Shown here piece after piece: positions 5,001 to 32,930 of a stretch of DNA of 64,000 nt. Every line of letters begins with the position of its first letter. Position 1 is the first letter of the stretch. This DNA comes from a virus: the IMG/VR virus record IMGVR_UViG_3300045988_173425, positions 36,970-100,969 of that record; one strand, given 5' to 3'. The notes under the pieces were generated by a model. The model saw only the letters and a list, made by a program, of their open reading frames with translations. It did not search any database and was not told the DNA's origin. Made by a program: the position numbers and the translations under genes.

Positions 5001-5074
5001 TGAGGTGTGGTGTAATGGTAACACACGAGATTTTGGTTCTCGCGTTGGAGGTTCGAATCCTTCCATCTCAACCA
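5001..5074 (+). tRNA. tRNA-Gln (anticodon UUG), CCA encoded
   Basis: Folded by hand. 7-bp acceptor stem (U1-A72, one G-U); D stem GTGT/ACAC with GG in the loop; anticodon stem CGAGA/TCTCG with loop TT-TTG-GT; 4-nt variable region; T arm GGAGG-TTCGAAT-CCTTC; discriminator A then CCA. Confidence 0.85.
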
Positions 5075-7389: not shown

Positions 7390-10107
7390 ATGATGCCTGA
7401 AATTATAGCCCCTTCGGTGACACACCGCTTGGCTTGTTTGGACCTCGTTGATGAAATTATCGAGGGTATGGACGAGCGCGGCCTGAACGAAATGATGAGC
7501 GGCGATATACACGACGTTGATACGATATTCGACGCCTTGATGGAAGACACGTACCGGATTATGTATACCGGCGACGTGTCGATCGATTTTAAGCCCCGCT
7601 ATGAAGAGAACGTCGCTGCCGTGGTGGAAGACACCTTGAGGTGCGCCAATTTGACGTATTTCATCACCTCTGTAATACCAGACTTCCAACTGTCGTGGCA
7701 CCACTTGGAGTGGGGTGAGTTGGTACACCAGTACAAGAAACTGTGTATCAACGCTGCGCGTGACCACGGAAAATGCGAAGCCGTTGGCACTCCCGTAAGA
7801 ATGTACGATGGAACTATCAAAAAGGTCGAAGACGTTGTCGTTGGAGACCTGTTGATGGGTGTTGATTCTAAACCGCGCCGCGTGGTTGCCACACACCGCG
7901 GTCACGATTCGATCATGTACCGTATCGACCAGTCGCGCGGTGATAGCTACATCGTTAATTCGCGTCACATTTGTACGCTAATCGAAAAAGGACGCGACGG
8001 AAGCGTTGAGCGCTGCTGTAAACGAATCGTTGACGTTGATATACCAACGCTGTTGAGTAAAACCCCAAACTGGGTAAGAGAGCGCTATCGCGGCTTCAAG
8101 GTAGCGGTGAAATATCCAGCGCGACCTGTAGGGGTGGAACCGTATTTCTTGGGGTACTGGTTGGGTGACGGAAATTCTAACAACCAAAAGATCACCACTG
8201 CCGACCCCGAAGTTGCGGAGTATTTACGCGGTTATGCCGAGCGTTTAGGACTTCATTACGGTCAGCAGGGTATGACGGTGACGATTGGAATCGATACCCG
8301 TGGACGCGGTAAGCGTAACCCGCTGGAAAGGATGCTAAAGGGTTACAACCTACTTTTCAACAAACACATTCCCGACCAATACCTCGTCAACAGCGAAGAA
8401 GTTCGTCTCCAGGTGTTGGCAGGGTTGATAGACTCCGACGGTAACTATTGGCAGGGCGGCTATCATTTCAGCAACACGAACCACCAGTTGGCGTGTGATG
8501 TGAAGAATTTGGCTGATAGCCTCGGTTTTTGTACACGATTAGGTGGCGGAACGCGGTATTGTAAAGCGTTGGGTCGTGACTATGCGTCGTGGGTCGTGAC
8601 TATTTCTGGCGAACTGGACCGTATTCCGGTAAAGATCGCTCGTAAGAAAGTCGTCACCGACTGGGTCTCAAAGACGTCACACAAAAACTGGGGCACGATC
8701 AACGGCATACACCCCAGCGTGGTATCGTCGTTGAAAATTACGCCCGTTGGCGAAGGTGAGTATGTGTCTATCACCACCGACGGCGACCACCGCTTCGTGT
8801 TGGGTGATGGTACGGTGACTCACAACTCGTTCTATTTCTCCAACGCCTACGCCGCGTGGCAGCTATACCGTTACAAACGTCCCTCAACAACTCGTTATTC
8901 AAAGCGTCCCACCGTGGCGTCGTCAAATCGCGGATTCTTATTTTCGTTCTCGCTACAGCAGAGCGTTGACCTTTTGGAGATTCTGAAAGGAACCATCGAA
9001 GAAAACGAGATTCTAAAAGAGCGGCTGTTCCCCCAGTCAACGGCCAACAACTGGTCAGCTACCAATATCGTGTGCCGCAACGGAGCGCGTTTGACGGGTA
9101 AGGGCTTTGGATCGTCGGTGCGCGGTGCTCACCCGTACTGGATTATCGTTGACGACGGCCTGAAGGACAACGTCATCTACTCCAGTCTCCAACGAAATAA
9201 GTCCACCGACTATTTCCACTCGGTGATTATGAATATGCTCGTCCCCGGCGGCCAGATTATCGTTGTTGGTACGCCGTTCCACGCCGAAGACCTTTACGGC
9301 GACTTGAAGACGAAGAACGGCTGGTTTGTGATTGAATACCCAGCTATCTTCCCTGACGGACGAATTCTTTGGCCTCAACGGTGGTCGTTTAAGGACCTGA
9401 TGGACAAAAAGGAGACTCAAGGATCGATCATCTTCTCACGCGAGAACCTTTGCCGCCCGATCACTAACGAGTCGTCTATATTCCCGATGGAAATTCTTAC
9501 ACGCGCGTTGCTACGAATGGAGAACTACACGTTGGTGGATTCACGTGAAGAATTCCCCGTTAAATTCTCCAAGGTGGTCGTTGGGTGCGACTTCGCCATT
9601 TCAGCCAACGTCGGTGCCGACTACGCCGTATTCAGCGTGTGGGGAATTGACGAATTGACTGACGAGCGTTGGCTGTTACACCTGTACCGTGAAAAGGGCG
9701 TGAAGTTCTTCGAGCAAATGAACGTTCTGCGCCGTATCAACTCCCGTTTCCGTCCAGACCTGATCGTGATGGAGAATAACACCTTCCAACAGATATTCGT
9801 TGAAGCCGCCGACACTGAAGGTATGCCTGTTATCGGCCACACTACGGGTATTGATAAATACGACCTGAAAACTGGTTGGCCGCACCTTTCGACGCTCTTT
9901 GAACGCGGTAAGATACACATTCCTGTGGGTAACGTATACTCACAACAGGTCAAGGACCTCATTTTCCAAGACCTCGGTTCAGTGGCTTTCACCGAAAAAG
10001 GATTGGAGAGCGTGGGCAGTCACGACGATATTTCGTCGTCGTTCTGGTTGGCCGACTTGGCTGCTTCGCGTATGACTACGGGCTTTAAGTTTGATATGTT
10101 AGGTTAG
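7390..10107 (+). CDS. terL: terminase large subunit, interrupted by an intein
   Basis: Removing 7774-8826 gives ...INAARDHGK|SFYF..., a Walker A (GKS). Walker B is YWIIVDDG. The C-terminal RNase-H-like nuclease has acidic motifs (VVGCDFA, IVMENN, SHDDISSS). The extein is 554 aa. Confidence 0.9.
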   Translation: MMPEIIAPSVTHRLACLDLVDEIIEGMDERGLNEMMSGDIHDVDTIFDALMEDTYRIMYTGDVSIDFKPRYEENVAAVVEDTLRCANLTYFITSVIPDFQLSWHHLEWGELVHQYKKLCINAARDHGKCEAVGTPVRMYDGTIKKVEDVVVGDLLMGVDSKPRRVVATHRGHDSIMYRIDQSRGDSYIVNSRHICTLIEKGRDGSVERCCKRIVDVDIPTLLSKTPNWVRERYRGFKVAVKYPARPVGVEPYFLGYWLGDGNSNNQKITTADPEVAEYLRGYAERLGLHYGQQGMTVTIGIDTRGRGKRNPLERMLKGYNLLFNKHIPDQYLVNSEEVRLQVLAGLIDSDGNYWQGGYHFSNTNHQLACDVKNLADSLGFCTRLGGGTRYCKALGRDYASWVVTISGELDRIPVKIARKKVVTDWVSKTSHKNWGTINGIHPSVVSSLKITPVGEGEYVSITTDGDHRFVLGDGTVTHNSFYFSNAYAAWQLYRYKRPSTTRYSKRPTVASSNRGFLFSFSLQQSVDLLEILKGTIEENEILKERLFPQSTANNWSATNIVCRNGARLTGKGFGSSVRGAHPYWIIVDDGLKDNVIYSSLQRNKSTDYFHSVIMNMLVPGGQIIVVGTPFHAEDLYGDLKTKNGWFVIEYPAIFPDGRILWPQRWSFKDLMDKKETQGSIIFSRENLCRPITNESSIFPMEILTRALLRMENYTLVDSREEFPVKFSKVVVGCDFAISANVGADYAVFSVWGIDELTDERWLLHLYREKGVKFFEQMNVLRRINSRFRPDLIVMENNTFQQIFVEAADTEGMPVIGHTTGIDKYDLKTGWPHLSTLFERGKIHIPVGNVYSQQVKDLIFQDLGSVAFTEKGLESVGSHDDISSSFWLADLAASRMTTGFKFDMLG
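7774..8826 (+). mobile_element. intein with LAGLIDADG homing-endonuclease domain (351 aa)
   Basis: Starts with Cys (HGK|CEAVGTPV) and ends ...GDGTVTHN|S (His-Asn plus a +1 Ser). Two LAGLIDADG motifs: YFLGYWLGDGN and VLAGLIDSDGNY. Length is exactly 1053 nt, in frame. Confidence 0.9.
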
Positions 10108-10126: not shown

Positions 10127-10942
10127 ATGAAAACTCTGATAGCACTATTCACTCGTGGTCGTGTTGACCGTCAGAAAACCCTTCAACGCCTCACTCCTGA
10201 AGCACGTCGGCGCGTGACCGTATTCTGCCACCCCGGCGAATTGGCGGCTCATCGTCGTAACTGGGGCGGTAAGGTTGGCGGCATCGAGGAATACAGCACG
10301 GCGTGTCGCGGCGTGGGGGACATACGCGACTACATTGTTGTAGAGGCCCAAAATCGGGGATTTGGCGGAGTCTTCTTTTTAGACGATAACGTGTCTTTCT
10401 CGCTACGTTTAGACGATGCCAAGACCCCTGTGGTCATAAACAACGACAATTTCACCGTCGAGGCTCAAGAATATATCTACGCGATGATGTTCGACTGGGT
10501 GGCTGAACAGCTGGACACCTATGCCGTGGCGGCGCTTTCGTACCGTCCTTTCAACCGCGATAAGGAACACGACGTACAGATCAACGGGCGGTTCTTCTCC
10601 ATTTGGGGGCTGAACATCGAGCAGTACCTGAGCCAGCCCGTGAGATTCAGCGAGTGGCCCATCAAGGAAGATTTTGCGGTGGCGTGTGGCTTACGCCGTG
10701 CGGGATTGGATAACGTGGTGTCGTACCAGTACTCGTTCGACAAAATGACCGGAGCCAACGCCGCTGGTGGTTGTAGCGTGTATCGAACCATCGAAAACTC
10801 CAACGCCGAATCACAACGTTTAAGAGAAGCGTTCCCCGAGTATATCACCCTTCGTACCAAGCGGTGCACCAACTGGGGTGGTGAAATGAAGGATCGCGAA
10901 ATGATCGAAGTCAAAATACACTTAAAAGGATACAAGAAATGA
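10127..10942 (+). CDS. GT-A-like (nucleotide-diphospho-sugar transferase-like) protein, paralog of 27953-28756
   Basis: N-terminal beta-strand/Arg (LIALFTRGR), DxD-like FFLDDN after a hydrophobic strand, later KEDF and AAGG..Y. The same motif order occurs in 27953-28756. The fold assignment is by eye only. Confidence 0.35.
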   Translation: MKTLIALFTRGRVDRQKTLQRLTPEARRRVTVFCHPGELAAHRRNWGGKVGGIEEYSTACRGVGDIRDYIVVEAQNRGFGGVFFLDDNVSFSLRLDDAKTPVVINNDNFTVEAQEYIYAMMFDWVAEQLDTYAVAALSYRPFNRDKEHDVQINGRFFSIWGLNIEQYLSQPVRFSEWPIKEDFAVACGLRRAGLDNVVSYQYSFDKMTGANAAGGCSVYRTIENSNAESQRLREAFPEYITLRTKRCTNWGGEMKDREMIEVKIHLKGYKK

Positions 10943-11619
10943 ACGTAAAATTCAAGAAAGTACACCCCAGCGCTGTTCTCCCGACATACGCTCACCCCGA
11001 CGGCGAAGACAACGGACTGGACCTTGTGGCTGTGTCGATCGAGGAAACCGACGACTACATCGAATACGACACTGGCGTGGCCGTTGAAATCCCCAAGGGG
11101 TACTGCGGTTTTTTGGTCCCCAATTCACGCTGTTCGAAAAAGGACCTGGTGATGTGTAACGCGCCGGGGGTAATCGATCCGGGGTATCGCGGTACGATGC
11201 GCGCTCGCTACAAAAACGTCTTCCACGCACCGACGCTGTGGCAGAAGATTGCCGGTAAACTACAGACGTATAGCCACGGAGTCGGAAAACTCTGCGTCAA
11301 TCCCGGCCCGACACATTCCAAGGCGTTCGCCGTCGGCGATGTCGTAGCCCAGCTGGTCATCGTACCTGCGCCTCAGATTGAGTCCGGTTGGGTTGAAGAA
11401 CTCACTCCGTCGAAGCGCGACACGGGTGGTTTCGGGTCAACGGTCAAGAAGGAAACGCCGCGTGCCGTGTGGGACGAAGACGTGAAACCGTGCCCGCGGT
11501 GCGGATCACCGATGTCGGTATCGGAGGACTTAGACGATACGGTTCTCTTGCAGTGTGAGGACTGCGGCTACTGGAAACGTATCGATAACGACGGTCACAC
11601 CGTCGACGGAGGATATTAA
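10939..11619 (+). CDS. dut: trimeric dUTPase with internal insertion and C-terminal zinc ribbon
   Basis: All five dUTPase motifs: NGLDL, PNSRCS, GVIDPGYRG, VVAQLV, RDTGGFGST. There are about 45 aa between motifs 3 and 4. The C-terminal tail has CPRC...CEDC. Confidence 0.85.
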   Translation: MNVKFKKVHPSAVLPTYAHPDGEDNGLDLVAVSIEETDDYIEYDTGVAVEIPKGYCGFLVPNSRCSKKDLVMCNAPGVIDPGYRGTMRARYKNVFHAPTLWQKIAGKLQTYSHGVGKLCVNPGPTHSKAFAVGDVVAQLVIVPAPQIESGWVEELTPSKRDTGGFGSTVKKETPRAVWDEDVKPCPRCGSPMSVSEDLDDTVLLQCEDCGYWKRIDNDGHTVDGGY

Positions 11620-15345: not shown

Positions 15346-15660
15346 ATGGACCGATGGAAATATTTCAGAATAGGTGATGTCGTTGCAGACCCTGAAGTTT
15401 GGGGTCGGACGACGTTTGTAATACGCGCGTTTCACGGTAACGACTACTGCCCGTTAATTACTGGCGAGTCCCTAAAACCGATTCGCGGTCGCCGCATAAG
15501 GGTAAACCTCGGCGTCGGGGAGGTGCGACTTGTAAACGCTCCTAAACGTCCGTTGATGAAGGTTCCAGATGGTACGTTGGTGCGGTTGACTGGGAAGAGC
15601 GTTGAAGCGCGGCGAGAATTGTTAATTAGAAGCTATCGTAAACAGCATGGCGACCTTTGA
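15346..15660 (+). CDS. hypothetical protein (104 aa)
   Basis: ATG ORF preceded by a GCCAACGTTTT motif variant at 15328. Confidence 0.65.
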   Translation: MDRWKYFRIGDVVADPEVWGRTTFVIRAFHGNDYCPLITGESLKPIRGRRIRVNLGVGEVRLVNAPKRPLMKVPDGTLVRLTGKSVEARRELLIRSYRKQHGDL

Positions 15661-16657
15661 TAATTATGCGTGGGCAGATAAGCTACCTGACGAAACGCTG
15701 GACGTGAGCGAAGAGCACCGCTCGGAGTTCTTCAGAACGATGTTCGAGCGCCAGATGATATGGAAACGCCGCTTCTTGGATGGAGCGCCGCGCCCGTGGA
15801 CCGAAGACCCGATCTTAAGGGACTATAAGTTTACCAACGTATATCGCGAGTTAGACCGCAATTCGCAGTGGCAAATACGAAACATCATTCTCGATCCGCT
15901 ACTTTCGTTGACGAATTTGGTTTGGAAGACGATGGTGTTTCGGTACTTCAATAATCCTGCAACGTTCGAATTCGCTCAACAGCGATACGGTTGGAAGGCG
16001 GGAATTCCAGATTACGACCAATACGACGAAGACCGCTTCGCAGAGATGATAGCTGTGTACCGTGCGTCGGGAAACAACCCTTACACTACGGCGTATTTGA
16101 TCAATTCGATGGCCACGCCCGGTAAACCGCGCGACTACTGTTACACGCACTTGGTGGTTCCTACGTTACACCGGCGCTTGGGTGAGTTGATACGGACGGT
16201 ATTGGCGGCTGAAACTCCTGAACAGATCATCAGGTTTTTACGCACCCTGCCTTCATCGGCTACATTCATCGCTCACGAATTTTACCAAGACTTTACCTAC
16301 ATATCACGCTACACCACGCGTCGTTTCATGCGTTTTACTCAAGACGACTATACCAACGTAGGACCTGGCGCATCGATTGGGTTGCGGTTGATATTTCCGT
16401 CGTTGAAACGTCAGGTGGATGGAATATATCGCCTGCGTGACGAATCGCGTGACGAGTTGGCGAAGTTGGGTAATTTCCCATACCTACACTGGGACCGCGC
16501 CGGGTGGCGTTACCGCGTATCGCGCGTGGGAGAAATAACGCTTCATCAGGTGGAAATGTGGCTGTGCGAGTACCAAAAGTATTGGAAAATGCGTATTGGC
16601 GAAGGCAAGCAGCGTTCTACATTTGAACCTCAAACTCGTAAATTAGTGGGACAATGA
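15647..16657 (+). CDS. possible alpha-glutamyl/putrescinyl thymine pyrophosphorylase (aGPT-Pplase)-like protein
   Basis: N-terminal ERQMIWKRRFLDGAPRPWTEDPILRDYKFTNVYRELDRNSQW resembles my recollection of the family signature (PWT.DPIL..Y.F.NVYRE.DR). The protein is all-helical in character. Not verified by a search. Confidence 0.5.
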   Translation: MATFDNYAWADKLPDETLDVSEEHRSEFFRTMFERQMIWKRRFLDGAPRPWTEDPILRDYKFTNVYRELDRNSQWQIRNIILDPLLSLTNLVWKTMVFRYFNNPATFEFAQQRYGWKAGIPDYDQYDEDRFAEMIAVYRASGNNPYTTAYLINSMATPGKPRDYCYTHLVVPTLHRRLGELIRTVLAAETPEQIIRFLRTLPSSATFIAHEFYQDFTYISRYTTRRFMRFTQDDYTNVGPGASIGLRLIFPSLKRQVDGIYRLRDESRDELAKLGNFPYLHWDRAGWRYRVSRVGEITLHQVEMWLCEYQKYWKMRIGEGKQRSTFEPQTRKLVGQ

Positions 16658-22326: not shown

Positions 22327-22359
22327 TAGTGGAAATGAAACTTATAAACCGATAACGTT

Positions 22360-24123
22360 ATGAAAGAAATTATCAACTACGGCGAAGCGCGTCGCCAACA
22401 GATTCTCAAAGGATTCACCAACATCGACGAGGTCGCTGAAGAAGCGCCGATCGAAAAAGCGCGTCATGGCGTATACGCTGACAACGCCCAGAATCGTCGC
22501 CTCCAGCGCGTGGGACAGGAATACGGTCACGCCGCCAAAGAAGACCCTGAAGCAGGTCAAGAAGGCAACGAGGGTGTACCTGAAGGCAACGTGAGTCTCC
22601 AGAACCACGCTCGTCAGGCTTCCGAGGAGGCGCTGGTGAAAGTAGCCAACGACCCGTCGGCTGATGCCGAAATGCGCAAGGTGGCTACCGCTGAACTCGA
22701 ACGGCGCGGCGTGAACGTTCGTGCCAAGAACAAGAAGGGCGACCAGTCGCTGCGTAACGGTCTGGCTGACGGCGACGCCAAATCGGCTTCTACGTTTGAG
22801 TCGATGGGCTTCCGTCAAATGGACGACCGCGATCTGGAGCAGTACGCCGGAGTGGAGGACGCTTCTCACGCTTTCATCAAGCAGGTAGGTGGTGACGAGG
22901 ACGGCTTCGATCTGGTAGTTACCAAGACCAGCGAAGGATATCGCGTCGACAAATACCCCTACGCTGACGTGGACAACTTTGAGTCCGTGACGGTGAAGGA
23001 AATCGGCGACGTTGAAGGCGCTGCGTCGAAATTCGGCGATCCCGACGCTAAAGGAAAGGGTGGAAAGGCTGACGCCAAATCGCTCATCGACAGTTTCAAC
23101 GAAATGGCCGAGGGTAACGCTGACTTTGACGCCGAGTCGTTCAAATCCTTCGTCAAGGAAAAAGGCGGAAAGGCCGTGAAAGAACTGGCTGATGCTATTC
23201 GCAAGATGCCCAGCGAGGCTGGTCAGAGTGATCTCGCCGACGACGAAATTGTCGATATGATCGAGAATATGTTCGAGGAGGCCGACACGCGTGTACCCAA
23301 GGAAGCCAAGAAGGAACTCGACAACCTTCGTGGGTCGGGTGAAAGCGTTCTTGCCAAGTGGGACGCCTATACTTCGGAGTCGGGTGAAGACGATGACTTC
23401 GGCGCAGCGCTCGAAAGCCTCATCGACAACAAGGGCGAGGCCAAGGCCATCAAGGAACTGGCCGCAGCCATGAAAGCAAATCCGGTTGATACTGGCGGTG
23501 TTCAGTCCGACGCTACGGACGACGAAATTGCCGACACCATCGCCAATATGTTCGAGATGGCTGGCGTGAAGGTATCGAAGGACGGCCAGAAGGAACTCGA
23601 CGCGCTGATCGGCGGTGAGGAGGAAAGCGCCACCAAGCAAGGTAAGAAGGCCGATGCTGCCGCCAAGGCCGAAGTGAAGAGTGCCGAGAAGGGCAACAAA
23701 GCTACAAAGTCTTCGTCTGAGAAGGATAACGCTGCGGCCGATAAATTCATCAAGAAAACCGGCAGAGGGGCTGATCCGGCTGAGTATGCCAAGATGATCG
23801 CCAAGAACCCCGAAGGCATTGCCCGCGCTCTGAAAGCAAGGATCGCATCCGGCGACAAAGAGGCCCAGCGTGCTGCTTTGAGCCTCAATTCGCTTACCGA
23901 TCCGCAGTCGCGTGACAAGGGCGTCGGCCAAGAACTCCTCAGCCATCCTGAGTTGAAGAAAATCGCTGACGAGCGTCAGGCTGCGCGCGATTCGCTTCGC
24001 GGGGAGTATGATCCGGAAGAATACCGTAAGAAGGTTGACGCGCAAATCGAGGTAATGAAACGCACCAACAAGGAATTCGTTGACAAGTTCCTCGAAATCT
24101 ACGCCAGTAACACCGAAGAGTAA
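22360..24123 (+). CDS. highly charged (K/E/D/A-rich) protein with internal tandem repeat
   Basis: 587-aa ATG ORF. N-terminal GVYADNAQNRRLQRVGQEYG motif. Two ~70-aa repeats (see the repeat feature). Confidence 0.75.
   Translation: MKEIINYGEARRQQILKGFTNIDEVAEEAPIEKARHGVYADNAQNRRLQRVGQEYGHAAKEDPEAGQEGNEGVPEGNVSLQNHARQASEEALVKVANDPSADAEMRKVATAELERRGVNVRAKNKKGDQSLRNGLADGDAKSASTFESMGFRQMDDRDLEQYAGVEDASHAFIKQVGGDEDGFDLVVTKTSEGYRVDKYPYADVDNFESVTVKEIGDVEGAASKFGDPDAKGKGGKADAKSLIDSFNEMAEGNADFDAESFKSFVKEKGGKAVKELADAIRKMPSEAGQSDLADDEIVDMIENMFEEADTRVPKEAKKELDNLRGSGESVLAKWDAYTSESGEDDDFGAALESLIDNKGEAKAIKELAAAMKANPVDTGGVQSDATDDEIADTIANMFEMAGVKVSKDGQKELDALIGGEEESATKQGKKADAAAKAEVKSAEKGNKATKSSSEKDNAAADKFIKKTGRGADPAEYAKMIAKNPEGIARALKARIASGDKEAQRAALSLNSLTDPQSRDKGVGQELLSHPELKKIADERQAARDSLRGEYDPEEYRKKVDAQIEVMKRTNKEFVDKFLEIYASNTEE
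23125..23613 (+). repeat. protein-level tandem duplication (~70 aa x2) inside 22360-24123
   Basis: aa 256-326 FKSFVKEKGGKAVKELADAIRKMP...SDLADDEIVDMIENMFEEADTRVPKEAKKELDNLRG aligns with aa 347-418 LESLIDNKGEAKAIKELAAAMKANP...SDATDDEIADTIANMFEMAGVKVSKDGQKELDALIG. Confidence 0.8.
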
Positions 24124-24341
24124 TGCCCTACAACGCCAAACATACACACTTCCTTCCGTCGCCATTCCCCACCGTTACTCAATACGAGAACCAATTCATT
24201 AAGGAATGGAACGCCAATAACGCCGCGGCGCTCGGTGATGTCTTGAAGTACATCGCCGACGCTACGGCTGCGGCGGTTAAAGAACTAAACGAGGATGAAA
24301 CAAAGAAAGGCAATTTGGGCCATACCGTCAACGAAAATTGA
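24123..24341 (+). CDS. hypothetical protein (72 aa)
   Basis: TAATG overlap with the upstream stop. Confidence 0.55.
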   Translation: MPYNAKHTHFLPSPFPTVTQYENQFIKEWNANNAAALGDVLKYIADATAAAVKELNEDETKKGNLGHTVNEN

Positions 24342-24804
24342 AAAGATTTGGAGCGTCGGTACGATAATCGCTGGTAACAGCGCGTTGGAAAAAGAACCGC
24401 CGTATCCGGTGTGGGTTGTTACCCGCATTAGGGACGAAAGAGGTCGGCCGAAGTACAACGTCGGTACATTATCGCGTATTGCTGACGGTAAGTGCGAAGT
24501 GAAGGTGTACCCCTCTGATGTATCGATCACGGTGTCGTTACAACCCGACGAAGAAATCCGCCTTTGGCCAGACACCGATTGGTTTTTGAAGAAGATGTTT
24601 GACGAAGACGCCGTCAAAATTAAAGACTTCGCCGAACTCCTCAAGGGCAGCGTCGTTATTGTCAAGGTACGCACTGAAGCCGGATTCAGTTACAGAGTAG
24701 GAAAAGTCGTTAAACTCACCGACACCGCTGCTGAAATCAACCTCAACGACTGCGTGGTTATCTTTAAGCGCGGCCATGAATCAAAGGTACGATTATGGAA
24801 GTAG
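24295..24804 (+). CDS. hypothetical protein (169 aa)
   Basis: ATG ORF overlapping the upstream ORF by 47 nt. No alternative in-frame ATG nearby. Confidence 0.65.
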   Translation: MKQRKAIWAIPSTKIEKIWSVGTIIAGNSALEKEPPYPVWVVTRIRDERGRPKYNVGTLSRIADGKCEVKVYPSDVSITVSLQPDEEIRLWPDTDWFLKKMFDEDAVKIKDFAELLKGSVVIVKVRTEAGFSYRVGKVVKLTDTAAEINLNDCVVIFKRGHESKVRLWK

Positions 24805-25391
24805 ACGAAATCACAAGGACCTTTCACGAGGCCAGTAAATACCGCAACGATCACTTGCGAAAGGCCATTGGCTGTTTTCAAGGAAACACTTTGACCGATG
24901 ATGCGCTTGAAAAGGCGAAGAAGCATCAGGTGAATGACGTGAAGCCAGATGACCCGAGATACGTTTGGACTGAATACACTTCAGGAAAATTCGGATGGAG
25001 GCTCCGGAAACCTGTTCTTTCTGTTCCTCTCACGGCCATAAAGGGAAACATTACCAAGCCGATGAGGACGAAATATCCGTTGAGTGTGTATGCTTCGCCA
25101 GTATTGGAAGCGATTAGAAATTATGCTTTGAACGTTATCAACAATCCAGTCGTGTACACCGATGTTCAGTTGTCGAACGCTCAAGGATGGTTCGATAGCG
25201 TTGATAAGGAATTAGAGGAACGTCGGCGACAGAAAGAGGCTAAAAAAGAAGCCCGTCGCGCACGTCGGAAGGCTGATGCAATTCGCCGTTCTACAACTTA
25301 TTACGACGGAGGTGTACCGGGTACAGCGAAACACGAAGGGGAATTCGGTAAGAAACTCGCTCAAACGGGCGAACACAACGAAAAAGATTGA
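24795..25391 (+). CDS. hypothetical protein carrying the shared YVWTEY..GKF.WR motif
   Basis: 198 aa. Motif EKAKKHQVNDVKPDDPRYVWTEYTSGKFGWRLRK at aa 39-72. Basic C-terminus. Confidence 0.7.
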   Translation: MEVDEITRTFHEASKYRNDHLRKAIGCFQGNTLTDDALEKAKKHQVNDVKPDDPRYVWTEYTSGKFGWRLRKPVLSVPLTAIKGNITKPMRTKYPLSVYASPVLEAIRNYALNVINNPVVYTDVQLSNAQGWFDSVDKELEERRRQKEAKKEARRARRKADAIRRSTTYYDGGVPGTAKHEGEFGKKLAQTGEHNEKD

Positions 25392-26323
25392 TGATTTTTA
25401 ACAACCGCCAAATAGACGACATGGTCGGTATTCTCCGGCGTTGGCAGTATCTCTTTATTGCCAAACACGTCGGATTGGACTACCTTACGCAGTCTGAAAT
25501 TGATATCTTGGTAGCGTCGGGAGTCAACGTCGATAAGTACAAGAACTCAAAGGGTATCATCGAACACGCTTTTTTGTTTGGAATCTTGGCTGAAGCAATC
25601 GGTGACACACGCGCCAAGAAGATGAACTACAAGCAGTTTCTCCAGTTCTTGAAATCGGGGAACTTCGTTCCGCTCACCGAACAGGAAGAAAACGCGCTGA
25701 ACTACCTCAAGAACCGCGCCTATACCGACATCACGTCACTCGGCAACCGGATCGTCACCGGAACGCGCAACGCAGTACTCAAGTCGAACTTTCGCCAGCA
25801 ATCGGCAATACGTCAGCAAATCAAAGATAAGGCCATTCAAGCCGTTCAACTTCGTAAGGGAGCGCGGTATATAGCCAGCGAACTGGGGAACCTTACCCAA
25901 GACTGGGGACGCGATTGGCTGCGTATTGCGTATTACCTTCTCCACGAAGCCTACAATGTAGGTCGCGCTGAAAGTATTTTCAAGCAACACGGTCCTGATG
26001 CCAAGGTGTATTTCGACGTTTACCCCGGCGCGTGTGCTAAATGCCGCGAATTGTACTTGGAAGACCCTGAAGACCTCAACTCAAAGCCGAAACTGTTCCG
26101 CTTGGCAGACCTTATTGCCAACGGTAACAATATTGGACGCAAAGTGGCTGAATGGCTCCCGACGATTGACCCAACGCACCCCTACTGCCGGTGTACGATC
26201 AACTTCGTTCCTGACGGCTTCGAATGGGACCCCGCAACACGCGCCTTCACCAAGCCAGTTAAGCGTCAATTCAAGAACCCAAAGTTAAAGAACGTGAAAC
26301 TTAACATTAAAGTTACCAAATAA
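25391..26323 (+). CDS. MuF / SPP1 gp7-like minor head (head morphogenesis) protein
   Basis: The ATG at 25391 shares its A with the upstream TGA; the track start 25388 is TTG. Has CAKCRELY and the family-typical PTHPYCRCTINF near the C-terminus. Confidence 0.7.
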   Translation: MIFNNRQIDDMVGILRRWQYLFIAKHVGLDYLTQSEIDILVASGVNVDKYKNSKGIIEHAFLFGILAEAIGDTRAKKMNYKQFLQFLKSGNFVPLTEQEENALNYLKNRAYTDITSLGNRIVTGTRNAVLKSNFRQQSAIRQQIKDKAIQAVQLRKGARYIASELGNLTQDWGRDWLRIAYYLLHEAYNVGRAESIFKQHGPDAKVYFDVYPGACAKCRELYLEDPEDLNSKPKLFRLADLIANGNNIGRKVAEWLPTIDPTHPYCRCTINFVPDGFEWDPATRAFTKPVKRQFKNPKLKNVKLNIKVTK

Positions 26324-27282
26324 TGAAAAACAAAATCGTACAAGACCCCCCGTTTACCATGCAGATCGAGCCGACCGAGGGGTGCAATCTGGGGTGTTCG
26401 TTCTGTGGTCTTCACGGTATGCGCGAAAAAGGGACTAAACCGTGGAATTTCATGACCGTTGAAACCGCCGAGCGTATTGCTTCGGAGGTGGCACGCGTGG
26501 GGTGGAACTGTAAGTTCGTGTTCGCTATGCACGGCGAGCCGACGCTCAACCCCGCGTTCATCGACATCGTGGCTACGTTCCGCAAGCACTTGCCGAAGGC
26601 TGTGTTCCATATGTACAGCAACGGCTACGCCATGAACCACGCTGCTGACACGTCCGAGTACCTCGACCGCCTGTTCGAGGCCGGCATGAACGACATACTG
26701 GTAGACTGTTACACAGCCAACGGCGACTGGAACTTCGTCGAGAAGATCGACGTTGAAAAGTACAACGTCGTCACGCTGGAACCGGGCGTTCCGTACTACT
26801 ATCCCAAGCAGGGGCGCCGTATCTGCCTGCTGCCGCCTATCGCCGAAGACGATACCAACAAGATGACGCGTCGTCTGGCCAATCACTGCGGTGCAGCGTT
26901 CCCGCTCGACGATTCGTTCAACAACAAGCGCTGCACCTTCCCGTTCCGTGAACTGGATGTGCGCTGGAATGGCCAGGTGTGTCTGTGCTGTGACGACTTC
27001 CGCGGCGAATATCCTATCGCCAATATCCACGATATGCCTATCGAGGACCTTTGGAACCATCCGCGTTTCCACGCTGCTCGCGTTATGCTGTACAACAACG
27101 ACCGCCGCTTCCGGCCGTGTCAAGGGTGTACACACGTCAGCGTCCGCGTCGGATTCCTGCCTGACAAAATGGGCAAGAAAACGCTGCCGCCTATTACGCC
27201 TGAAATTCGCCGCATGGCTGAAGACGTGTCGAAGGACGGCCCGTGTGCTGAGAAGATTTACAAACGGCCATGGGAAAAATAA
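26323..27282 (+). CDS. radical SAM enzyme with extra C-terminal Cys-rich (SPASM/twitch-like) region
   Basis: CNLGCSFC (CxxxCxxC) at aa 21-28. C-terminal CTFPF...NGQVCLCCDDF...RPCQGC. TAATG overlap with the MuF-like gene. Confidence 0.8.
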   Translation: MKNKIVQDPPFTMQIEPTEGCNLGCSFCGLHGMREKGTKPWNFMTVETAERIASEVARVGWNCKFVFAMHGEPTLNPAFIDIVATFRKHLPKAVFHMYSNGYAMNHAADTSEYLDRLFEAGMNDILVDCYTANGDWNFVEKIDVEKYNVVTLEPGVPYYYPKQGRRICLLPPIAEDDTNKMTRRLANHCGAAFPLDDSFNNKRCTFPFRELDVRWNGQVCLCCDDFRGEYPIANIHDMPIEDLWNHPRFHAARVMLYNNDRRFRPCQGCTHVSVRVGFLPDKMGKKTLPPITPEIRRMAEDVSKDGPCAEKIYKRPWEK

Positions 27283-27950
27283 AGTACCTCTGTGTCGAGC
27301 CGCACGCGGGTGATCTCCTGATGAGCGCTTGTCACGTTTTAGTAGCACCCGAACGTCGTATTCGGGTGCTTACTGTTGATAACACGCCATCGCCGCTCGC
27401 TGAACAGCGTAAATTGTACGATTTTCTGGGAATCGGCGTGGACTGTCTGGACTTGGAGTTAGAAGATGTCCGTTGTAGCGATTTCAAGACCCATTACAGG
27501 GATTATAGCTATGAAAGCGTCTATATGTACCTTCGTACTAAATTCGGGACTGATGGGCTTAATTTCGCCGAACAAACGCTTCGTGATTATTTGCGTAAGT
27601 TTATGCGCCGCAACCCCGGATACACCCTGTTAGCGCCGTTGGGTGCAGGCAATCCCTTCAACCAGTTTGTACACGATACGGTGTATGATACGGCATCCGG
27701 GGCGGAATATTATCGCGACTTTCCGTATTCGTACACGCGCCGCGGCTGTAGCCAGATTCAAGTCCAGTGCTACGGTAGCGAAAGTTTGTTGATGAAACGC
27801 CGCGTTGATGTTGGTGATATGTTCGACGTTAAGTGGGAACTGGCGCTGCGCTTTTATCCGTCGTTAGAGCCTACGATGAACAAATATCAACGTTTTATAG
27901 AACAAAACCCACCCGAGGAAATTTGGTACGAGGGTGACTTACCGTTTTGA
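27270..27950 (+). CDS. hypothetical protein with weak LmbE/PIG-L-like pattern
   Basis: N-terminal strand plus LCVEPHAGDLL (compare the family motif AHPDDE; the His and the i+3 Asp are kept) and a later QFVHD. Overlaps the radical SAM gene by 13 nt. Confidence 0.3.
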   Translation: MGKIKYLCVEPHAGDLLMSACHVLVAPERRIRVLTVDNTPSPLAEQRKLYDFLGIGVDCLDLELEDVRCSDFKTHYRDYSYESVYMYLRTKFGTDGLNFAEQTLRDYLRKFMRRNPGYTLLAPLGAGNPFNQFVHDTVYDTASGAEYYRDFPYSYTRRGCSQIQVQCYGSESLLMKRRVDVGDMFDVKWELALRFYPSLEPTMNKYQRFIEQNPPEEIWYEGDLPF

Positions 27951-27952
27951 GT

Positions 27953-28756
27953 ATGAATTGTCAATTCTTCGTCGTGTCCAAGAACCGTCCTAAATGCGTC
28001 ACGACCAAACTTCTGAAAAAGGGCGGCGTCGACTATCACATCGTAGTCGAGAAAGAAGACGTCGAGAAATACGTCGAAGCGGGTCACGAGCGTGAACGCC
28101 TTATCGTGCTGCCGGCATCGAATCGTGGCTACAGCTATGTAGTCAATTTCTGTAAGAACACCTACCTGCGCGAGGGGCGTCCAGTAGTGGTCATGGATGA
28201 CGATATCGCCAATTTCTTCTACTCTATTGACGGTGAAGCAAAATGCGGGCTTTCGTTGAAAACCCCTGAAGAGTTGGCTGAATTCTTCGAAGAGTTCAAC
28301 CGCGAAGTCATGGAAACAGACTTCGAGTACGGGACCATGGGGAAGAGCGCGTTTGACTGGAACTGCACCGACGTCAGTCCTCGCTTCAAATACGGTGGCA
28401 TCCCTCATCTCATCGTGTTCAAAGGCTTACGCACGCTGGAACTGGATTTTGACGAAAAGTTGGAGTTAAAGTGTGATATCGACTATTCGTTGAAGTGCAT
28501 GTACCTCGGTATCGTATACGCACGGTTCGTACGCTTTCTTCTCCAGAGTAAGATGAACAAGGAAGCCACCCAAGGCGGCGGTCTTCAGGACGTATACAAG
28601 CGTCAAGAGCGTGTACAGCGTGCTCACGATATTATCTTGAAGCGTTGGCCGCTTAACGCTCGTGTTGACGAAAAGAAGAAACCCATAAACGGCGTTCCGG
28701 AGTTGCGTATTGTGTACAAGAAGTTTGATATTGACTTTGACGCTGTAGAAGTGTAG
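27953..28756 (+). CDS. GT-A-like protein, paralog of 10127-10942
   Basis: ATG at 27953 (the track start 27947 is TTG). FFVVSKNR, DxD-like VVMDDD, later KCDIDY and QGGG..DVY, in the same order as in 10127-10942. Confidence 0.35.
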   Translation: MNCQFFVVSKNRPKCVTTKLLKKGGVDYHIVVEKEDVEKYVEAGHERERLIVLPASNRGYSYVVNFCKNTYLREGRPVVVMDDDIANFFYSIDGEAKCGLSLKTPEELAEFFEEFNREVMETDFEYGTMGKSAFDWNCTDVSPRFKYGGIPHLIVFKGLRTLELDFDEKLELKCDIDYSLKCMYLGIVYARFVRFLLQSKMNKEATQGGGLQDVYKRQERVQRAHDIILKRWPLNARVDEKKKPINGVPELRIVYKKFDIDFDAVEV

Positions 28757-28790: not shown

Positions 28791-30542
28791 ATGTCTGATA
28801 CTATCCAAAAAGCAAAGCACAACGTCGGCGACCACCACCCTACCCAGCCGTGGGTGTGGACGGAATACAAGCCCGGAAAATTCAACTGGCGTGTCGATAA
28901 GAACGCCCATTCCAAGTCCAGCGCCGATGCCGGTAAACAGTCAAGCGAATCGTCGGCCGACACACGCCTTGAAGCGTGGGCCAAGAAGACCAGTGACGAC
29001 AACCTCCTCAAGGTCGTTAACAATCCTAAAGGTAATGCCCAATTGCGCCAGATCGCGTACAACGAGTTGAAGTCTCGTAACGTCGATCTTTCGCAGGTTG
29101 ATACCAGTGGTACGTTGGCTACGCTGTTGAAGATGACCGTCAAGCAAGACCCCGTCGCGCCTACTGGCACCAAAGCGCAGGTAGATATCAACGACGGCGA
29201 GGGCGGTAACGACGACGGTGAAATCATCGAGGACTGGTTCCTCAATCCTGAAGACCCGCGTATTCAGAAGAAGTTCAACAAACTTCAGAGCCGTCAAGAC
29301 CGTATCGCCTACGACCGTTTTGTCTACGCGATGAAGAAGAAGGACCCCGATTATCAGCCGCCCATCGAAGTGATGTACGACTTGAACCGCCAATATCTGG
29401 AGTTCTTGGATAACAAGGAGCAGCGATTCATGATCTCGGCTGGCGGTGCTGGTATCGGTAAGTCGTACGGTTTCAAGAAAATTGCTGAACTCCTCAACAA
29501 GCGTCCGTTTGACGCTGAAACTGATTCGCCGGGTGATGGTGACTACGACTATGTTGAGTTGGGTGATATCAACTCCAAGAAGCAGCTGTTGAACGTACTT
29601 AAAGCCCACAACGGCAAAATCCTTCTGTTCGACGATACTGACTCGGTAATCACTCGCGCCGACCTGGCTTCTATCATGAAGAAGGCTACGGCCGCATCTG
29701 GTAAGCGTGTGGTCGGCGATCCTGAAGACGTCAAGTCGAACTTCGTATTCACGGGCCGCATCATCATCATGACCAACAAGGACCTCGTCAACCTTTCCAA
29801 GAACGAGGACACCAAGGCTATTATTTCGCGTGCTACGCTGACGTCGGAAGTTTATCTCACCGTCGACGAAACGATCGAAGTACTGAAAGACCGTTACGAG
29901 GATATGGACATTCCCCAGCAGCCGCATCTCGATGACCCCGAGGAAGACAAGCAGGAGCGCAAGGAGTTGTACGATCTTATCGTTAAGAACCGTGCCAAGA
30001 TTGACCCTGCAAAGTTCACCACCCGTACCTTTGGCACTATTCTTTCGGAGAAGCGCCTTACGGATCGTGGCAACAAACGTGCAAAACTTGGAGGGCAGTG
30101 GACCAGCGTCATCGGCAACAAGCAAAAGGAGTGGGAACGGGCGGCAGTGCGTGCACTGACGAAGTCACTCGCGTACGAGGCCATACAACCGATCGAAACC
30201 TCCGATGAGATAGCCAAGGCCGAAGCCCTGCTCAACGAAGCAGAATCGCTTGAAAAGGCCGAATTCACCGAGAAGCAGCGTGAGCGTCTTGCCGACAAAA
30301 AGGAGGCTCTGCCTGACGGTTCGTTCCCGATTCGTAACAAGTCCGACCTGAAGAACGCCATTCGGTTGGCAGGTAACGCCAAAAATCCTGAACGCGCCCG
30401 CCGTTGGATCAAGCGCCGCGCCAAGTCGCTCGGCGCCGAAGACATGATCCCCGACACTTGGAAGGCTCAACAGACAGAACTCGGTGCGTTGCCGGCTGAC
30501 GATATGTCGATTGAAAAAGCAGAAACCCTTTTGTTTGGATAA
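28791..30542 (+). CDS. AAA+-type P-loop ATPase with N-terminal shared motif and C-terminal SFPIR..DL.NAI module
   Basis: Walker A SAGGAGIGKS, Walker B KILLFDDTD, sensor-1-like IIIMTNK, AIISRA. N-terminal KAKHNVGDHHPTQPWVWTEYKPGKFNWRVDK. C-terminal DGSFPIRNKSDLKNAIRLAGNAKNPERARRWIKRRAKSLG. Confidence 0.65.
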   Translation: MSDTIQKAKHNVGDHHPTQPWVWTEYKPGKFNWRVDKNAHSKSSADAGKQSSESSADTRLEAWAKKTSDDNLLKVVNNPKGNAQLRQIAYNELKSRNVDLSQVDTSGTLATLLKMTVKQDPVAPTGTKAQVDINDGEGGNDDGEIIEDWFLNPEDPRIQKKFNKLQSRQDRIAYDRFVYAMKKKDPDYQPPIEVMYDLNRQYLEFLDNKEQRFMISAGGAGIGKSYGFKKIAELLNKRPFDAETDSPGDGDYDYVELGDINSKKQLLNVLKAHNGKILLFDDTDSVITRADLASIMKKATAASGKRVVGDPEDVKSNFVFTGRIIIMTNKDLVNLSKNEDTKAIISRATLTSEVYLTVDETIEVLKDRYEDMDIPQQPHLDDPEEDKQERKELYDLIVKNRAKIDPAKFTTRTFGTILSEKRLTDRGNKRAKLGGQWTSVIGNKQKEWERAAVRALTKSLAYEAIQPIETSDEIAKAEALLNEAESLEKAEFTEKQRERLADKKEALPDGSFPIRNKSDLKNAIRLAGNAKNPERARRWIKRRAKSLGAEDMIPDTWKAQQTELGALPADDMSIEKAETLLFG

Positions 30543-30545
30543 CGC

Positions 30546-32930
30546 ATGGATGAACTGAGAAAAGCGTTGGAAACATTCGCCCTTCGTAATGCAGAGGGCG
30601 AAGTTTCTGACGCATTATTGGAGAAAGCGTGCGAAGCGTACAAGGCTCGTTCTTCAGAGTTCGTCGATGATTACGAGTACAACCTGTATGTGGCAAAATC
30701 AGTCTACGACCACATACACGGCGTTGATCAGGACCCTGAAATAACAAAAGCCATCATGCCCGGCCAAACCAAGGTCGTTAACGGCGTGGTGTATATTTGG
30801 ACGCTGACTCCAAACGCCAAAACAACTTACGATTGGCGAGTTTACAAAAATGCCAATGGTAAGCCCATAGGCGCTGCTGCTTCAAAATCGCCGTCTACTC
30901 TGGCCAAGGAGGAAAAGGTCGTCAACGAAATGTTCCCGGCCGATACTTCAGAACTGACGTTTGTAAAGAAATTAGGCGGTTCTACAGGGGCTGAGTTGAT
31001 GAAAGACTCCAAGGGCCGTGAGTTTGTTGTCAAGAGTTCGAAGAATACCAGCCGCGGTCACGTTGCCGCAGAATACTACGCCGCGCAAGTTTACAGTCTT
31101 TTGGGGCTGGACACCCCGGACTATGAGTTGTATGACGACGGAACCGACCTGACACTTATTTCGAACTACATGCGCGGTATGTCCGAACCGCAGGCCAAGG
31201 ACTATGACGCCATGGCCAAGGGGTTTGCGGTTGATGCATTTCTGGCCAATTGGGATGTATATCAAAATGACAATTGCTTGGTAGACGCTGCCGGTAAAGT
31301 CTATCGTGTTGATAACGGCGGCTCGTTTAACTACCGAGCGCAGGGAGCGCAAAAGCCTTTCATTGGTCAAATCGACTGGGACGGAATGGTGAAATACAAC
31401 CCGAGTATTATCGCCAACCTCACCCCGCAAGACTTTATTGACCAGATTGATGCTCTCAAGGCTCGTAAGGACGAAATATTGGCGTTCTTTGACGCTGGCA
31501 AACTGGCCTCTAAACCGAAGATGCGCGCCATAATTGAAGCCCGTTTTGACGATTTAGATCGCATTCGCGGCATGTATGAGGTAGAACTCCAGCGCACCAC
31601 CAGAAAGATTAAACCGCGGACACTGAAATCGCCTGCGGATATGTATCGCGATTTTACCGACGACGAGGTTAACAGTTTCTGGCAAAACGCCGCAGGTAAT
31701 TCGTATTACCAGAAGTTGCAAAACCACAGTGGCTCTACAGGTTGGAACATACTTTCTGCCGTGTGCGGCGAACGTGGTTTTGACGCTCGCCCTGAAGTAG
31801 TCGATGACGCTACGTTCTGGGCAAAGGTAGCGCAAGCCAAATACCATATGTTCCGCGGTGTTGACCGTAAGGGAACCGACAAAGACTATTACGCTGACGA
31901 CTTTAAGTACAACGACGAATGTTTCTACGGAACGGTTGGCGTTTACGCTGAAGGAATCTATTTCCATGTCAACGATTCAGCCAACGCTAATCGAACTCCC
32001 TCGGGGTATCAACACACCTCTGCCTACAAGAACGCGCGTGGTTACGCTGGGTCTGGGGCGATCATCGAGGCTTGTCTTGATTCCAGCGCCAAAGTCATAA
32101 CTGTCGAAGACGCCAAGAAGGAAGTGTCTCAGTTATCAACCGTTAATTCTCCGGCATTCAAGGCTGCTCGTAAGGAACTCGATGACGCTACGGCGGAATA
32201 CGAGCGTATCAACGACGAACTCATAAACCTTACCGATAACACCAAGAACAAGGTTAAGGCCGACATGCACTGGGACGATGCTTCGTTTGTAGACATTCCG
32301 CTTCAAATCGATCAGGTCATCGACTGGGGCGCTATCGACGATGACGGAAATCCGGCATACATGAAGTTTGACGAGTTCATGGATAATCACCTCAAGGGAT
32401 GGATAACAGCCAACGGCGGTACCATCACCGAAAAAGGTAAAGGCACAGGCGACTTTGTTATTCGAATGCCGAACACTACGGAGCGATTCGTGTTCTCGCG
32501 CTATCGGTACGAGAACGACGCCATAAAACGCAAGAACGCTTTTGCGCGTCCGTACAGCTATCCCGTCCGCCAGTTTAAGGAATGGATAATGCGCGAGCAC
32601 TTTGGTAAGATTGAGGACGCCATCAAGGAGGCTGTTGACAATTTGGGCGATGAAGTTAATCGTTTACAAGGCGAGCGGAGTAAAGCGTACAATGTTTACA
32701 AGGAAAAGCAAAACGCGGTAAATAAGTTGAACGTAGGCGCTGTTGGCGATCCTGACAAAGACATTTACGCCGCTATTTACAAAAACGTCATCAAGGATCA
32801 AGATAACGAAGCGCTGGGCATATACGCCGCTTTGAAGGGATATGACGCTCTTATTCAGCCTAACGGAAACGGTTGTGGTAATTCGTTCATGATCGTGTTG
32901 AATCGCTCAAAAATCATTACTCGTAAATAG
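30546..32930 (+). CDS. large multidomain protein: atypical kinase-like domain plus possible ADP-ribosyltransferase-like domain
   Basis: aa ~135-345: GREFVVKSS (Lys), AAEYYA (Glu), VDAFLANWDVYQNDNCLVD..GKVYRVDNGGS (catalytic-loop/DxG-like). aa ~405-525: HMFRGV ... YGTVGVYAEGIYF ... GAIIEACL, reminiscent of an ART R / Y-x-G-I-Y-F / E triad. By eye only. Confidence 0.4.
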   Translation: MDELRKALETFALRNAEGEVSDALLEKACEAYKARSSEFVDDYEYNLYVAKSVYDHIHGVDQDPEITKAIMPGQTKVVNGVVYIWTLTPNAKTTYDWRVYKNANGKPIGAAASKSPSTLAKEEKVVNEMFPADTSELTFVKKLGGSTGAELMKDSKGREFVVKSSKNTSRGHVAAEYYAAQVYSLLGLDTPDYELYDDGTDLTLISNYMRGMSEPQAKDYDAMAKGFAVDAFLANWDVYQNDNCLVDAAGKVYRVDNGGSFNYRAQGAQKPFIGQIDWDGMVKYNPSIIANLTPQDFIDQIDALKARKDEILAFFDAGKLASKPKMRAIIEARFDDLDRIRGMYEVELQRTTRKIKPRTLKSPADMYRDFTDDEVNSFWQNAAGNSYYQKLQNHSGSTGWNILSAVCGERGFDARPEVVDDATFWAKVAQAKYHMFRGVDRKGTDKDYYADDFKYNDECFYGTVGVYAEGIYFHVNDSANANRTPSGYQHTSAYKNARGYAGSGAIIEACLDSSAKVITVEDAKKEVSQLSTVNSPAFKAARKELDDATAEYERINDELINLTDNTKNKVKADMHWDDASFVDIPLQIDQVIDWGAIDDDGNPAYMKFDEFMDNHLKGWITANGGTITEKGKGTGDFVIRMPNTTERFVFSRYRYENDAIKRKNAFARPYSYPVRQFKEWIMREHFGKIEDAIKEAVDNLGDEVNRLQGERSKAYNVYKEKQNAVNKLNVGAVGDPDKDIYAAIYKNVIKDQDNEALGIYAALKGYDALIQPNGNGCGNSFMIVLNRSKIITRK

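Follow-up and report, generated by a model that had tools for sequence, protein, structure and literature searches.

A radical SAM, LmbE-fold and TAGT glycosyltransferase cassette behind the MuF-like gene of a human-gut myovirus: possible glycan tailoring of hydroxymethyluracil DNA

Three adjacent genes encoding a radical S-adenosylmethionine (SAM) enzyme, an LmbE/PIG-L-fold protein and a glycosyltransferase were analysed in a 64,000-nt stretch of viral DNA (positions 36,970 to 100,969 of IMG/VR record IMGVR_UViG_3300045988_173425), referred to below as the window. They lie directly behind a MuF-like head-morphogenesis gene (Table 1) and had been singled out beforehand from the letters alone, in what is called here the sequence-only reading. 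The motifs quoted in that reading (CNLGCSFC, a C-terminal Cys cluster, PHAGD, FVHD and VVMDDD) were all recovered from the raw sequence, and its three family guesses, a SPASM/twitch radical SAM enzyme, an LmbE/PIG-L fold and a GT-A-type enzyme with a DxD motif, were borne out by the comparisons given below. Judged by Pfam scores well over the cut-offs, the radical SAM, SPASM and TAGT (TET/JBP-associated glycosyltransferase) assignments are not due to chance.

The junctions between the genes were confirmed on the raw sequence and on the list of open reading frames (ORFs). The TAA stop of the MuF-like gene and the ATG of the radical SAM gene share one base (a 1-nt overlap; TAATG, 26321-26325), the radical SAM and LmbE-fold ORFs overlap by 13 nt, and the TGA of the LmbE-fold gene (27948-27950) is followed after a gap of 2 nt by the TAGT ATG at 27953; use of an alternative in-frame TTG at 27947 would turn this gap into a 4-nt overlap. 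The tightness from which a translational unit had been proposed is therefore real, but it is nothing special, because overlapping genes are the rule in the window: 33 of the 69 plus-strand junctions overlap and a further 10 of the 69 have gaps of 10 nt or less, so that 62% are equally tight. Since overlaps are normal here and DNA-modification genes share the head region, the coupling to MuF, which had been taken as a functional hint, was given little weight. Promoter and terminator scans of 24-33.5 kb returned counts no different from those of shuffled sequence.

The radical SAM protein matched Pfam Radical_SAM (PF04055) with 60.7 bits (cut-off 29.5; 2.6e-16) and SPASM (PF13186) with 47.3 bits (cut-off 21.5; 2.6e-12). 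The CX3CX2C motif, C21-N-L-G-C25-S-F-C28 (residues 21-28), was invariant in 16 homologues, down to 43% identity, and Cys204, Cys222, Cys223, Cys266 and Cys269 were invariant in the same set; Cys220 and Cys308 varied, leaving only these five in the C-terminal part. Five invariant C-terminal Cys point to one auxiliary cluster of the twitch type, not to two as in anSME, and the full seven- or eight-Cys SPASM motif of an anSME-like second cluster was absent. The family profile aligned with BtrN (4m7t) at 3.2e-18 over both domains, with all four auxiliary-cluster Cys in register, and the next solved relative, anSME, followed at 9.4e-6; on these profile comparisons BtrN is the closest solved relative. 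A specific NCBIfam family was not found for the protein, which gave weak matches to several peptide maturases.

Among isolated phages the only relatives of the radical SAM enzyme were found, at 23% identity, in Campylobacter phage vB_CjeM_WX1 (locus L115, 107721-122482), where they belong to a cluster that combines several radical SAM genes with genes for an amidinotransferase and an aminotransferase; an LmbE-like protein is encoded elsewhere in Campylobacter phages. This 'BtrN protein' locus was considered as a parallel to the cassette and was dropped, as its neighbours are not LmbE-like.

The middle protein itself had no match in Pfam, PHROG or NCBIfam, and a word-indexed search with it returned close relatives only. 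Profile scanning of 1.84 billion representative proteins yielded 48 relatives, and PF02585 (PIG-L) was matched, below or near threshold, by 12 of 28 relatives (best 6.1e-7). AlphaFold modelling gave a predicted local distance difference test score (pLDDT) of 35 with an 11-sequence alignment and of 91 with 28 sequences, 17 distant homologues having been added. The top Foldseek match of the model in the PDB was the teicoplanin pseudoaglycone deacetylase 2xad (7.6e-8, TM 0.61), and its viral structure matches were annotated as PIG-L or LmbE-like. By this model the middle protein has the LmbE/PIG-L fold.

Its catalytic motifs are degenerate. The motifs PHSDD, GHPFH and FPHSYK are intact in relatives at 32-42% identity; the first two of these align with AHPDD and HPDH, and in the profile alignment they pair with the motifs of the Dbv21 deacetylase. 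In the clade to which the window protein belongs (at least 72% identity), PHSDD has become PHAGD or (P/S)QAGD, GHPFH has become G(H/N/Q)PFN and FPHSYK has become FPYSY. In the window protein PHAGD occupies residues 11-15, and its general-base Asp is replaced by Gly14, as it is throughout the clade; both His of the second motif, now GNPFN, are Asn (Asn128 and Asn131), with Asn131 at the position of the third zinc ligand. His12 and Asp15 are still present, Gln replacing His12 in some close relatives. These residue roles were assigned by alignment to MshB- and Dbv21-type enzymes, for which we take them to be established. With the general base and the third zinc ligand lost, deacetylase activity is probably gone in the window clade, the window protein included.

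The sequence-only reading had seen a zinc site in PHAGD and FVHD, which was wrong in detail, as the canonical motifs are PHSDD and GHPFH, both degenerate here, and FVHD (133-136) lies outside the second. His135 and Asp136 of FVHD were also considered as a relocated metal site; this was rejected because His occupies that position in clades with intact motifs too, so that there is no clade-specific compensation. In comparisons with eight relatives, the ratio of nonsynonymous to synonymous substitution rates was 0.13-0.20 for the LmbE-fold gene and 0.01-0.04 for its neighbours (0.01-0.04 for the radical SAM gene, 0.01-0.02 for the TAGT gene). The LmbE-fold gene thus evolves 5-10 times faster than the genes around it, which indicates a protein still under selection, with relaxed constraint.

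The third protein matched Pfam TAGT (PF20691) with 51.4 bits (cut-off 27.5; 1.8e-13) over profile positions 3-203 of 205, and phrog_842, which carries the name of the T2/T6 enzyme, 'beta-glucosyl-HMC-alpha-glucosyltransferase', at 7.5e-18. Its VVMDDD is the GT-A DxD motif and appears as [ILM]DDD in all close homologues. On these matches it is a TAGT-family GT-A glycosyltransferase, with sugar transfer to hydroxymethylpyrimidine DNA as the predicted activity. The trypanosome base J glucosyltransferase is a TAGT relative that acts on DNA. In T6-type phages it is also a TAGT that puts the second glucose on DNA (PMC13390438).

Table 1. Genes of the cassette and associated features, with positions in the window
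Feature	Position	Strand	Size	Remarks
MuF-like head-morphogenesis protein	25388..26323	+	311 aa	HPYCRC motif C-terminal; upstream neighbour of the cassette
BtrN-like radical SAM enzyme, one twitch/SPASM auxiliary-cluster domain	26323..27282	+	319 aa	PF04055, PF13186
LmbE/PIG-L-fold protein, degenerate catalytic motifs PHAGD, GNPFN, FPYSY	27270..27950	+	226 aa	AlphaFold 2 model and Foldseek
TAGT-family GT-A glycosyltransferase, DDD motif conserved	27953..28756	+	267 aa	PF20691
Walker-A P-loop protein, conserved downstream neighbour	28791..30542	+	583 aa	
Second, highly divergent TAGT glycosyltransferase	10127..10942	+		PF20691 6.2e-13
dUTPase fused to Lar-like zinc ribbon	10939..11619	+		TIGR00576 1.9e-20, TIGR03655 2.4e-4, Pfam dUTPase
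aGPT-Pplase / amino-acid:DNA transferase (AADT) homologue (Pfam HMUDK_hel)	15647..16657	+		PF18723 2.3e-49

Scanning of IMG/VR recovered 79 related loci on contigs mostly of ~100 kb, with a conserved order of portal, further genes, MuF-like gene, cassette, 583-aa P-loop protein and 794-aa protein. The linkage to MuF, on whose conservation the sequence-only reading had made its proposal depend, was kept in these loci. An LmbE-fold gene and a glycosyltransferase were present in each complete module read. The usual glycosyltransferase was a GT4-like GT-B protein of ~485 aa, which in 16 members gave weak but consistent matches to Glyco_transf_5 (13/16), Glyco_transf_4 (11/16) and Glycos_transf_1 (9/16) and had no match among PDB sequences; in the window clade the TAGT mostly takes its place. 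The radical SAM gene was present in some lineages and missing in many, an FkbM-type methyltransferase was added in one lineage, and GIY-YIG/NUMOD3 homing endonucleases were inserted in some cassettes. Two natural fusions, one of a radical SAM to an LmbE-like domain (P0019) and one of an LmbE-like domain to a TAGT (P0020), tie the three genes to one pathway, and together with the GT-B and FkbM variants of the cassette they reinforce the earlier idea of sugar or amino-sugar tailoring.

The most distant family member has a GT4 enzyme and a methyltransferase as neighbours, and the group is flanked by a helicase and by a TnsA-like nuclease; it does not follow MuF. In a collection of one genome per species (185,579 species) the family had one match only, on a probable phage contig binned in a metagenome-assembled genome of a human-gut Bacteroidales. 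Megablast of 24-33 kb found no close relatives among isolated phages, and neither the TAGT nor a PIG-L-like relative had a match there when used as a tblastn query.

The genome around the cassette was assessed from the window and from IMG/VR contig 3300045988_158973, which supplied the rest of the same genome; together ~93 of 100.5 kb were covered. The major capsid protein was closest to those of Bacteroides phages DAC16-23 and SJC03 (49%) and of SP-10 (39%). Assignment to the crAss-like phages, raised by a crAss001_48 domain in one relative, was rejected because the major capsid protein is Herelle-like. Genes of DNA metabolism, namely the second TAGT, the dUTPase, a 5'-3' exonuclease and the aGPT-Pplase/AADT homologue, are interleaved with packaging genes. 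The second TAGT, without BLAST similarity to the first, directly follows the intein-bearing terminase gene and precedes the dUTPase; it probably takes part in DNA glycosylation too, and the dUTPase is consistent with control of the nucleotide pool for 5-hydroxymethyluracil (hmU) DNA. The aGPT-Pplase homologue lies immediately upstream of the portal gene; in tblastn it matched the 'aGPT-pyrophosphorylase clade 1' proteins of SP-10, PaMx11 and Nachito, and this kinship implies hypermodification of 5-hydroxymethyldeoxyuridine, of which it would be a marker.

Outside the window the same genome encodes a 412-aa thymidylate synthase homologue with 44% identity (2e-56) to the SP-10 dUMP hydroxymethylase and with the uracil-type Asn kept, a YfbR-like 5'-deoxynucleotidase, RecA, DnaB and other replication and repair proteins. 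Taken together, the thymidylate synthase homologue, deoxynucleotidase, dUTPase, aGPT-Pplase homologue and second TAGT make hmU a plausible acceptor. DNA polymerase III alpha is interrupted by a GIY-YIG/NUMOD3 homing endonuclease, which leaves it as two ORFs; in locus L085 (9686-16077), also of this genome, it stands together with the YfbR-like deoxynucleotidase and with the thymidylate synthase homologue, whose closest matches are dUMP hydroxymethylases of hmU phages. The intein of the terminase large subunit gene (7390-10107) has Hom_end-associated Hint and LAGLIDADG homing endonuclease domains. A single tRNA-Gln (anticodon TTG) lies at 5001-5074 in a gene-poor stretch, and a 607-aa antisense ORF (22342-24165, minus strand), which mirrors an acidic Lys/Glu-rich 587-aa plus-strand ORF (22360-24123), is probably a compositional artefact and not a gene.

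The MuF label of the upstream protein is weakly supported, by phrog_595 at 7e-5 and by sub-threshold matches of 5 of 10 homologues to Phage_Mu_F (PF04233; best 2.9e-4), the window protein itself having no match to this family; its position is conserved across the related contigs. The 583-aa protein, always directly downstream of the glycosyltransferase in relatives, is the sole protein of the window with a canonical Walker A motif and gave no informative family or structure match, although over its last 80 residues it is similar to segments found near the capsid maturation proteases of Microbacterium phages. Its candidacy as the missing hmU DNA kinase was unsupported by family and structure comparisons. 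The proteins at 24795-25391, 28791-30542 and 30546-32930, around MuF and the cassette, have a common N-terminal motif, W.WTEY..GKF.WR, which may serve as a signal for capsid targeting or packaging. In some relatives the protein corresponding to 24795-25391 is fused to MuF (L004, 5024-7054). The 794-aa protein at 30546-32930 gave weak matches only (Ntox30, 0.0093), its central region (VDNGGSF, NWDV) is kinase-like by eye, and it may be a packaged effector.

We read the three genes as a variable glycan-tailoring cassette that acts post-replicatively on the phage's own hmU DNA, because TAGT relatives act on DNA and the genome appears equipped for hmU; the reading is tentative, with a probability put at about 0.45. 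The phage would be a Herelle-like myovirus of ~100 kb from the human gut, probably infecting Bacteroidales, which probably makes 5-hydroxymethyl-dUMP and carries hmU in place of thymine. The TAGT would move a hexose or N-acetylhexosamine from a host uridine diphosphate sugar onto the hydroxymethyl group or, alternatively, onto a sugar that the second TAGT had attached before, and in most relatives the GT4-like GT-B enzyme stands in its position; the product would be akin to base J or to the glucosylated 5-hydroxymethylcytosine (hmC) of T-even phages. In the ancestral cassette the LmbE/PIG-L enzyme would strip the N-acetyl group and expose the amine, and the pairing of a glycosyltransferase with an LmbE enzyme follows the classic logic of adding N-acetylglucosamine and exposing its amine. 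BtrN-like enzymes oxidise a hydroxyl adjacent to an amine, and the radical SAM enzyme, where present, would abstract a hydrogen from a sugar carbon so that the amine-adjacent hydroxyl is oxidised or epimerised. In the window clade the LmbE-fold protein would probably be retained to bind the other two enzymes or to serve them as a scaffold.

A fuller version of this reading places a base-J-like glycan on hmU and has it remodelled on the DNA polymer in widespread human-gut Bacteroidales myoviruses, an LmbE-type de-N-acetylase yielding an amino sugar, a BtrN-like enzyme oxidising or epimerising it, and the deacetylase persisting as a non-catalytic partner in the window clade; as a whole it is doubtful. 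The DNA reading is favoured by the presence of two TAGTs, as in T6-type diglucosylation (PMC13390438), and the location is compatible with it because genes for DNA modification alternate here with those for the terminase and the portal. The quick exchange of cassette parts would fit an arms race with restriction systems.

Family and fold assignments, fusions, synteny, motif loss and the selection pattern are established, whereas we infer that DNA is the target, which sugar is moved and what chemistry the radical SAM enzyme carries out; this status of the DNA acceptor weighs against the reading, and so do several further points. SPASM/twitch enzymes frequently act on peptides, and the ~485-aa GT-B protein of most relatives has generic, sub-threshold matches and no specific DNA link. 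The locus L003 and similar relatives combine a degenerate LmbE-fold protein with a GT-B enzyme, so that the swap to a TAGT alone does not simply explain the loss of motifs. Over the ~93 of 100.5 kb covered, neither a TET/JBP protein nor a recognisable 5-HMUDK kinase was found, and nucleotide-sugar biosynthesis genes were not seen. The cassette also lies between MuF and probable packaged or internal virion proteins.

This last point makes glycosylation of virion proteins a serious rival, though an unlikely one: the cassette would modify capsid, MuF-associated or internal proteins, and the sugar linked to them would be tailored by the radical SAM and LmbE-fold proteins. Virion glycosylation by phage glycosyltransferases has precedent in the literature, and in some mycobacteriophages glycosyltransferases near capsid genes glycosylate virion proteins. 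The head-module position behind MuF is fixed in ~80 contigs, on either side stand genes for probable virion or internal proteins with the common N-terminal motif, and the end of the 583-aa protein recalls segments beside capsid maturation proteases; the generic GT-B of most relatives and the FkbM methyltransferases, which are typical of glycan methylation, would suit such a target as well. Yet the characterised TAGT relatives, the T2/T6 enzyme and, as generally understood, the base J glucosyltransferase, act on DNA, the genome has a second TAGT and an hmU toolkit, DNA-modification genes are scattered over the same late region, and the most distant homologue sits in a helicase/nuclease neighbourhood.

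A host or small-molecule target was considered improbable. The cassette would then act on a lipid-linked or envelope sugar, in superinfection exclusion or receptor masking, or on a metabolite of the aminoglycoside or tunicamycin kind, its GT4, LmbE deacetylase and twitch radical SAM order being as in butirosin or neomycin. Among solved structures BtrN is nearest to the radical SAM enzyme by a wide margin, the fold of the middle protein comes closest to those of glycopeptide-antibiotic LmbE deacetylases, and GT4, LmbE and radical SAM enzymes together would, by analogy, make up an aminoglycoside pathway set. Against this, the neighbourhood showed no membrane anchor and no genes for an aminotransferase, a cyclase or nucleotide sugars, the cassette belongs to a block of late structural genes in a myovirus that appears to be lytic, and the family is nearly absent from the 185,579-species collection, its single match being on a probable phage contig. 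Less probable still is that the radical SAM enzyme is a maturase of MuF or another head protein, of anSME or sactisynthase type, with the sugar genes adjacent by incidental packing. The SPASM family consists mostly of peptide maturases, to several of which the enzyme has its weak NCBIfam matches, anSME is its second-best solved relative, and its start overlaps the MuF stop; but overlapping junctions are the norm, many relatives keep MuF without the radical SAM gene, the BtrN match is 12 orders of magnitude better than that to anSME with one auxiliary cluster and not two, and the P0019 fusion argues for one pathway with the LmbE-fold protein.

Several known systems resemble parts of the preferred hmU-DNA reading. 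The layout had been thought unfamiliar among described phage modification clusters, a view that did not hold, as DNA-modification and glycosylation clusters adjoining structural or terminase genes have been published (bioRxiv 10.1101/2023.12.21.572611; PMC13229309; PMC8256090). The T-even and metavirome DNA glycosyltransferase systems (T4 alpha- and beta-GT, T2/T6 TAGT, 5mYOX/TET-associated GT clusters and the trypanosome base J glucosyltransferase) are alike in the TAGT GT-A fold with DxD, two glycosyltransferases per genome, clusters beside terminase or structural genes and, probably, a hydroxymethylpyrimidine pathway. They differ in that here no TET/JBP or C5-methyltransferase was found, the proposed acceptor is pre-replicative hmU and not hmC, and the transferase has as partners an LmbE-fold protein and a twitch radical SAM enzyme, which were both absent from the literature searched. 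The thymidine hypermodification of M6, ViI, SP-10 and PaMx11 (5-HMUDK, aGPT-Pplase/AADT, a pyridoxal phosphate enzyme and a radical SAM isomerase) shares with this genome a dUMP-hydroxymethylase-like enzyme and an aGPT-Pplase homologue; those phages use amino-acid-tailoring partners, whereas the partners here are sugar enzymes, and no 5-HMUDK or pyridoxal phosphate enzyme was recognised. M6 gp53 sets the precedent of a radical SAM enzyme on a DNA adduct and is the only one described (PMC8989533), but it is spore-photoproduct-lyase-like and the window enzyme is BtrN-like with a twitch domain.

BtrN, the 2-deoxy-scyllo-inosamine dehydrogenase of butirosin synthesis, resembles the window enzyme over its whole length, with the same spacing of auxiliary-cluster Cys, and BtrN, BtrM (GT4) and BtrD (LmbE-family deacetylase) would form the same trio of enzyme classes; the context here is a phage, without aminotransferase or cyclitol synthase. 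To the N-deacetylases MshB, BshB, PIG-L and teicoplanin Orf2*/Dbv21 the likeness lies in the fold and in the PHSDD/GHPFH motifs of the wider phage family, whereas in the window protein Gly14 stands for the general-base Asp and Asn131 for the third zinc ligand, and there is no Pfam match. Phage Carin-5 has a predicted cluster of glycosyltransferases with a sugar N-deacetylase that is thought to build thymidine-linked oligosaccharides (PMC12686479). Full-text literature searches found no description of a phage system that joins a twitch radical SAM enzyme, an LmbE-fold protein and a DNA-type glycosyltransferase.

Hypermodifications of phage DNA shape the contest with restriction and CRISPR and supply enzymes for epigenetic sequencing, and the cassette is plausibly a new variant of a known anti-restriction strategy. 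If it acts on DNA, radical SAM tailoring of sugars and de-N-acetylation would be added to the known chemistry, and if the base-J-like version is true, neither radical SAM chemistry on a sugar nor an amino-sugar adduct would have been described on DNA before. Should virion proteins be the target, the cassette would join the few documented glycosylation systems of phages that infect Gram-negative gut bacteria. The ~80 genomes, with one locus of varied content (radical SAM gene present or absent, GT-B or TAGT, methyltransferase present or absent, LmbE motifs intact or degenerate), amount to a natural experiment for the assignment of steps. If the DNA reading is true, the modified DNA of these abundant human-gut phages may also bias their sequencing and cultivation.

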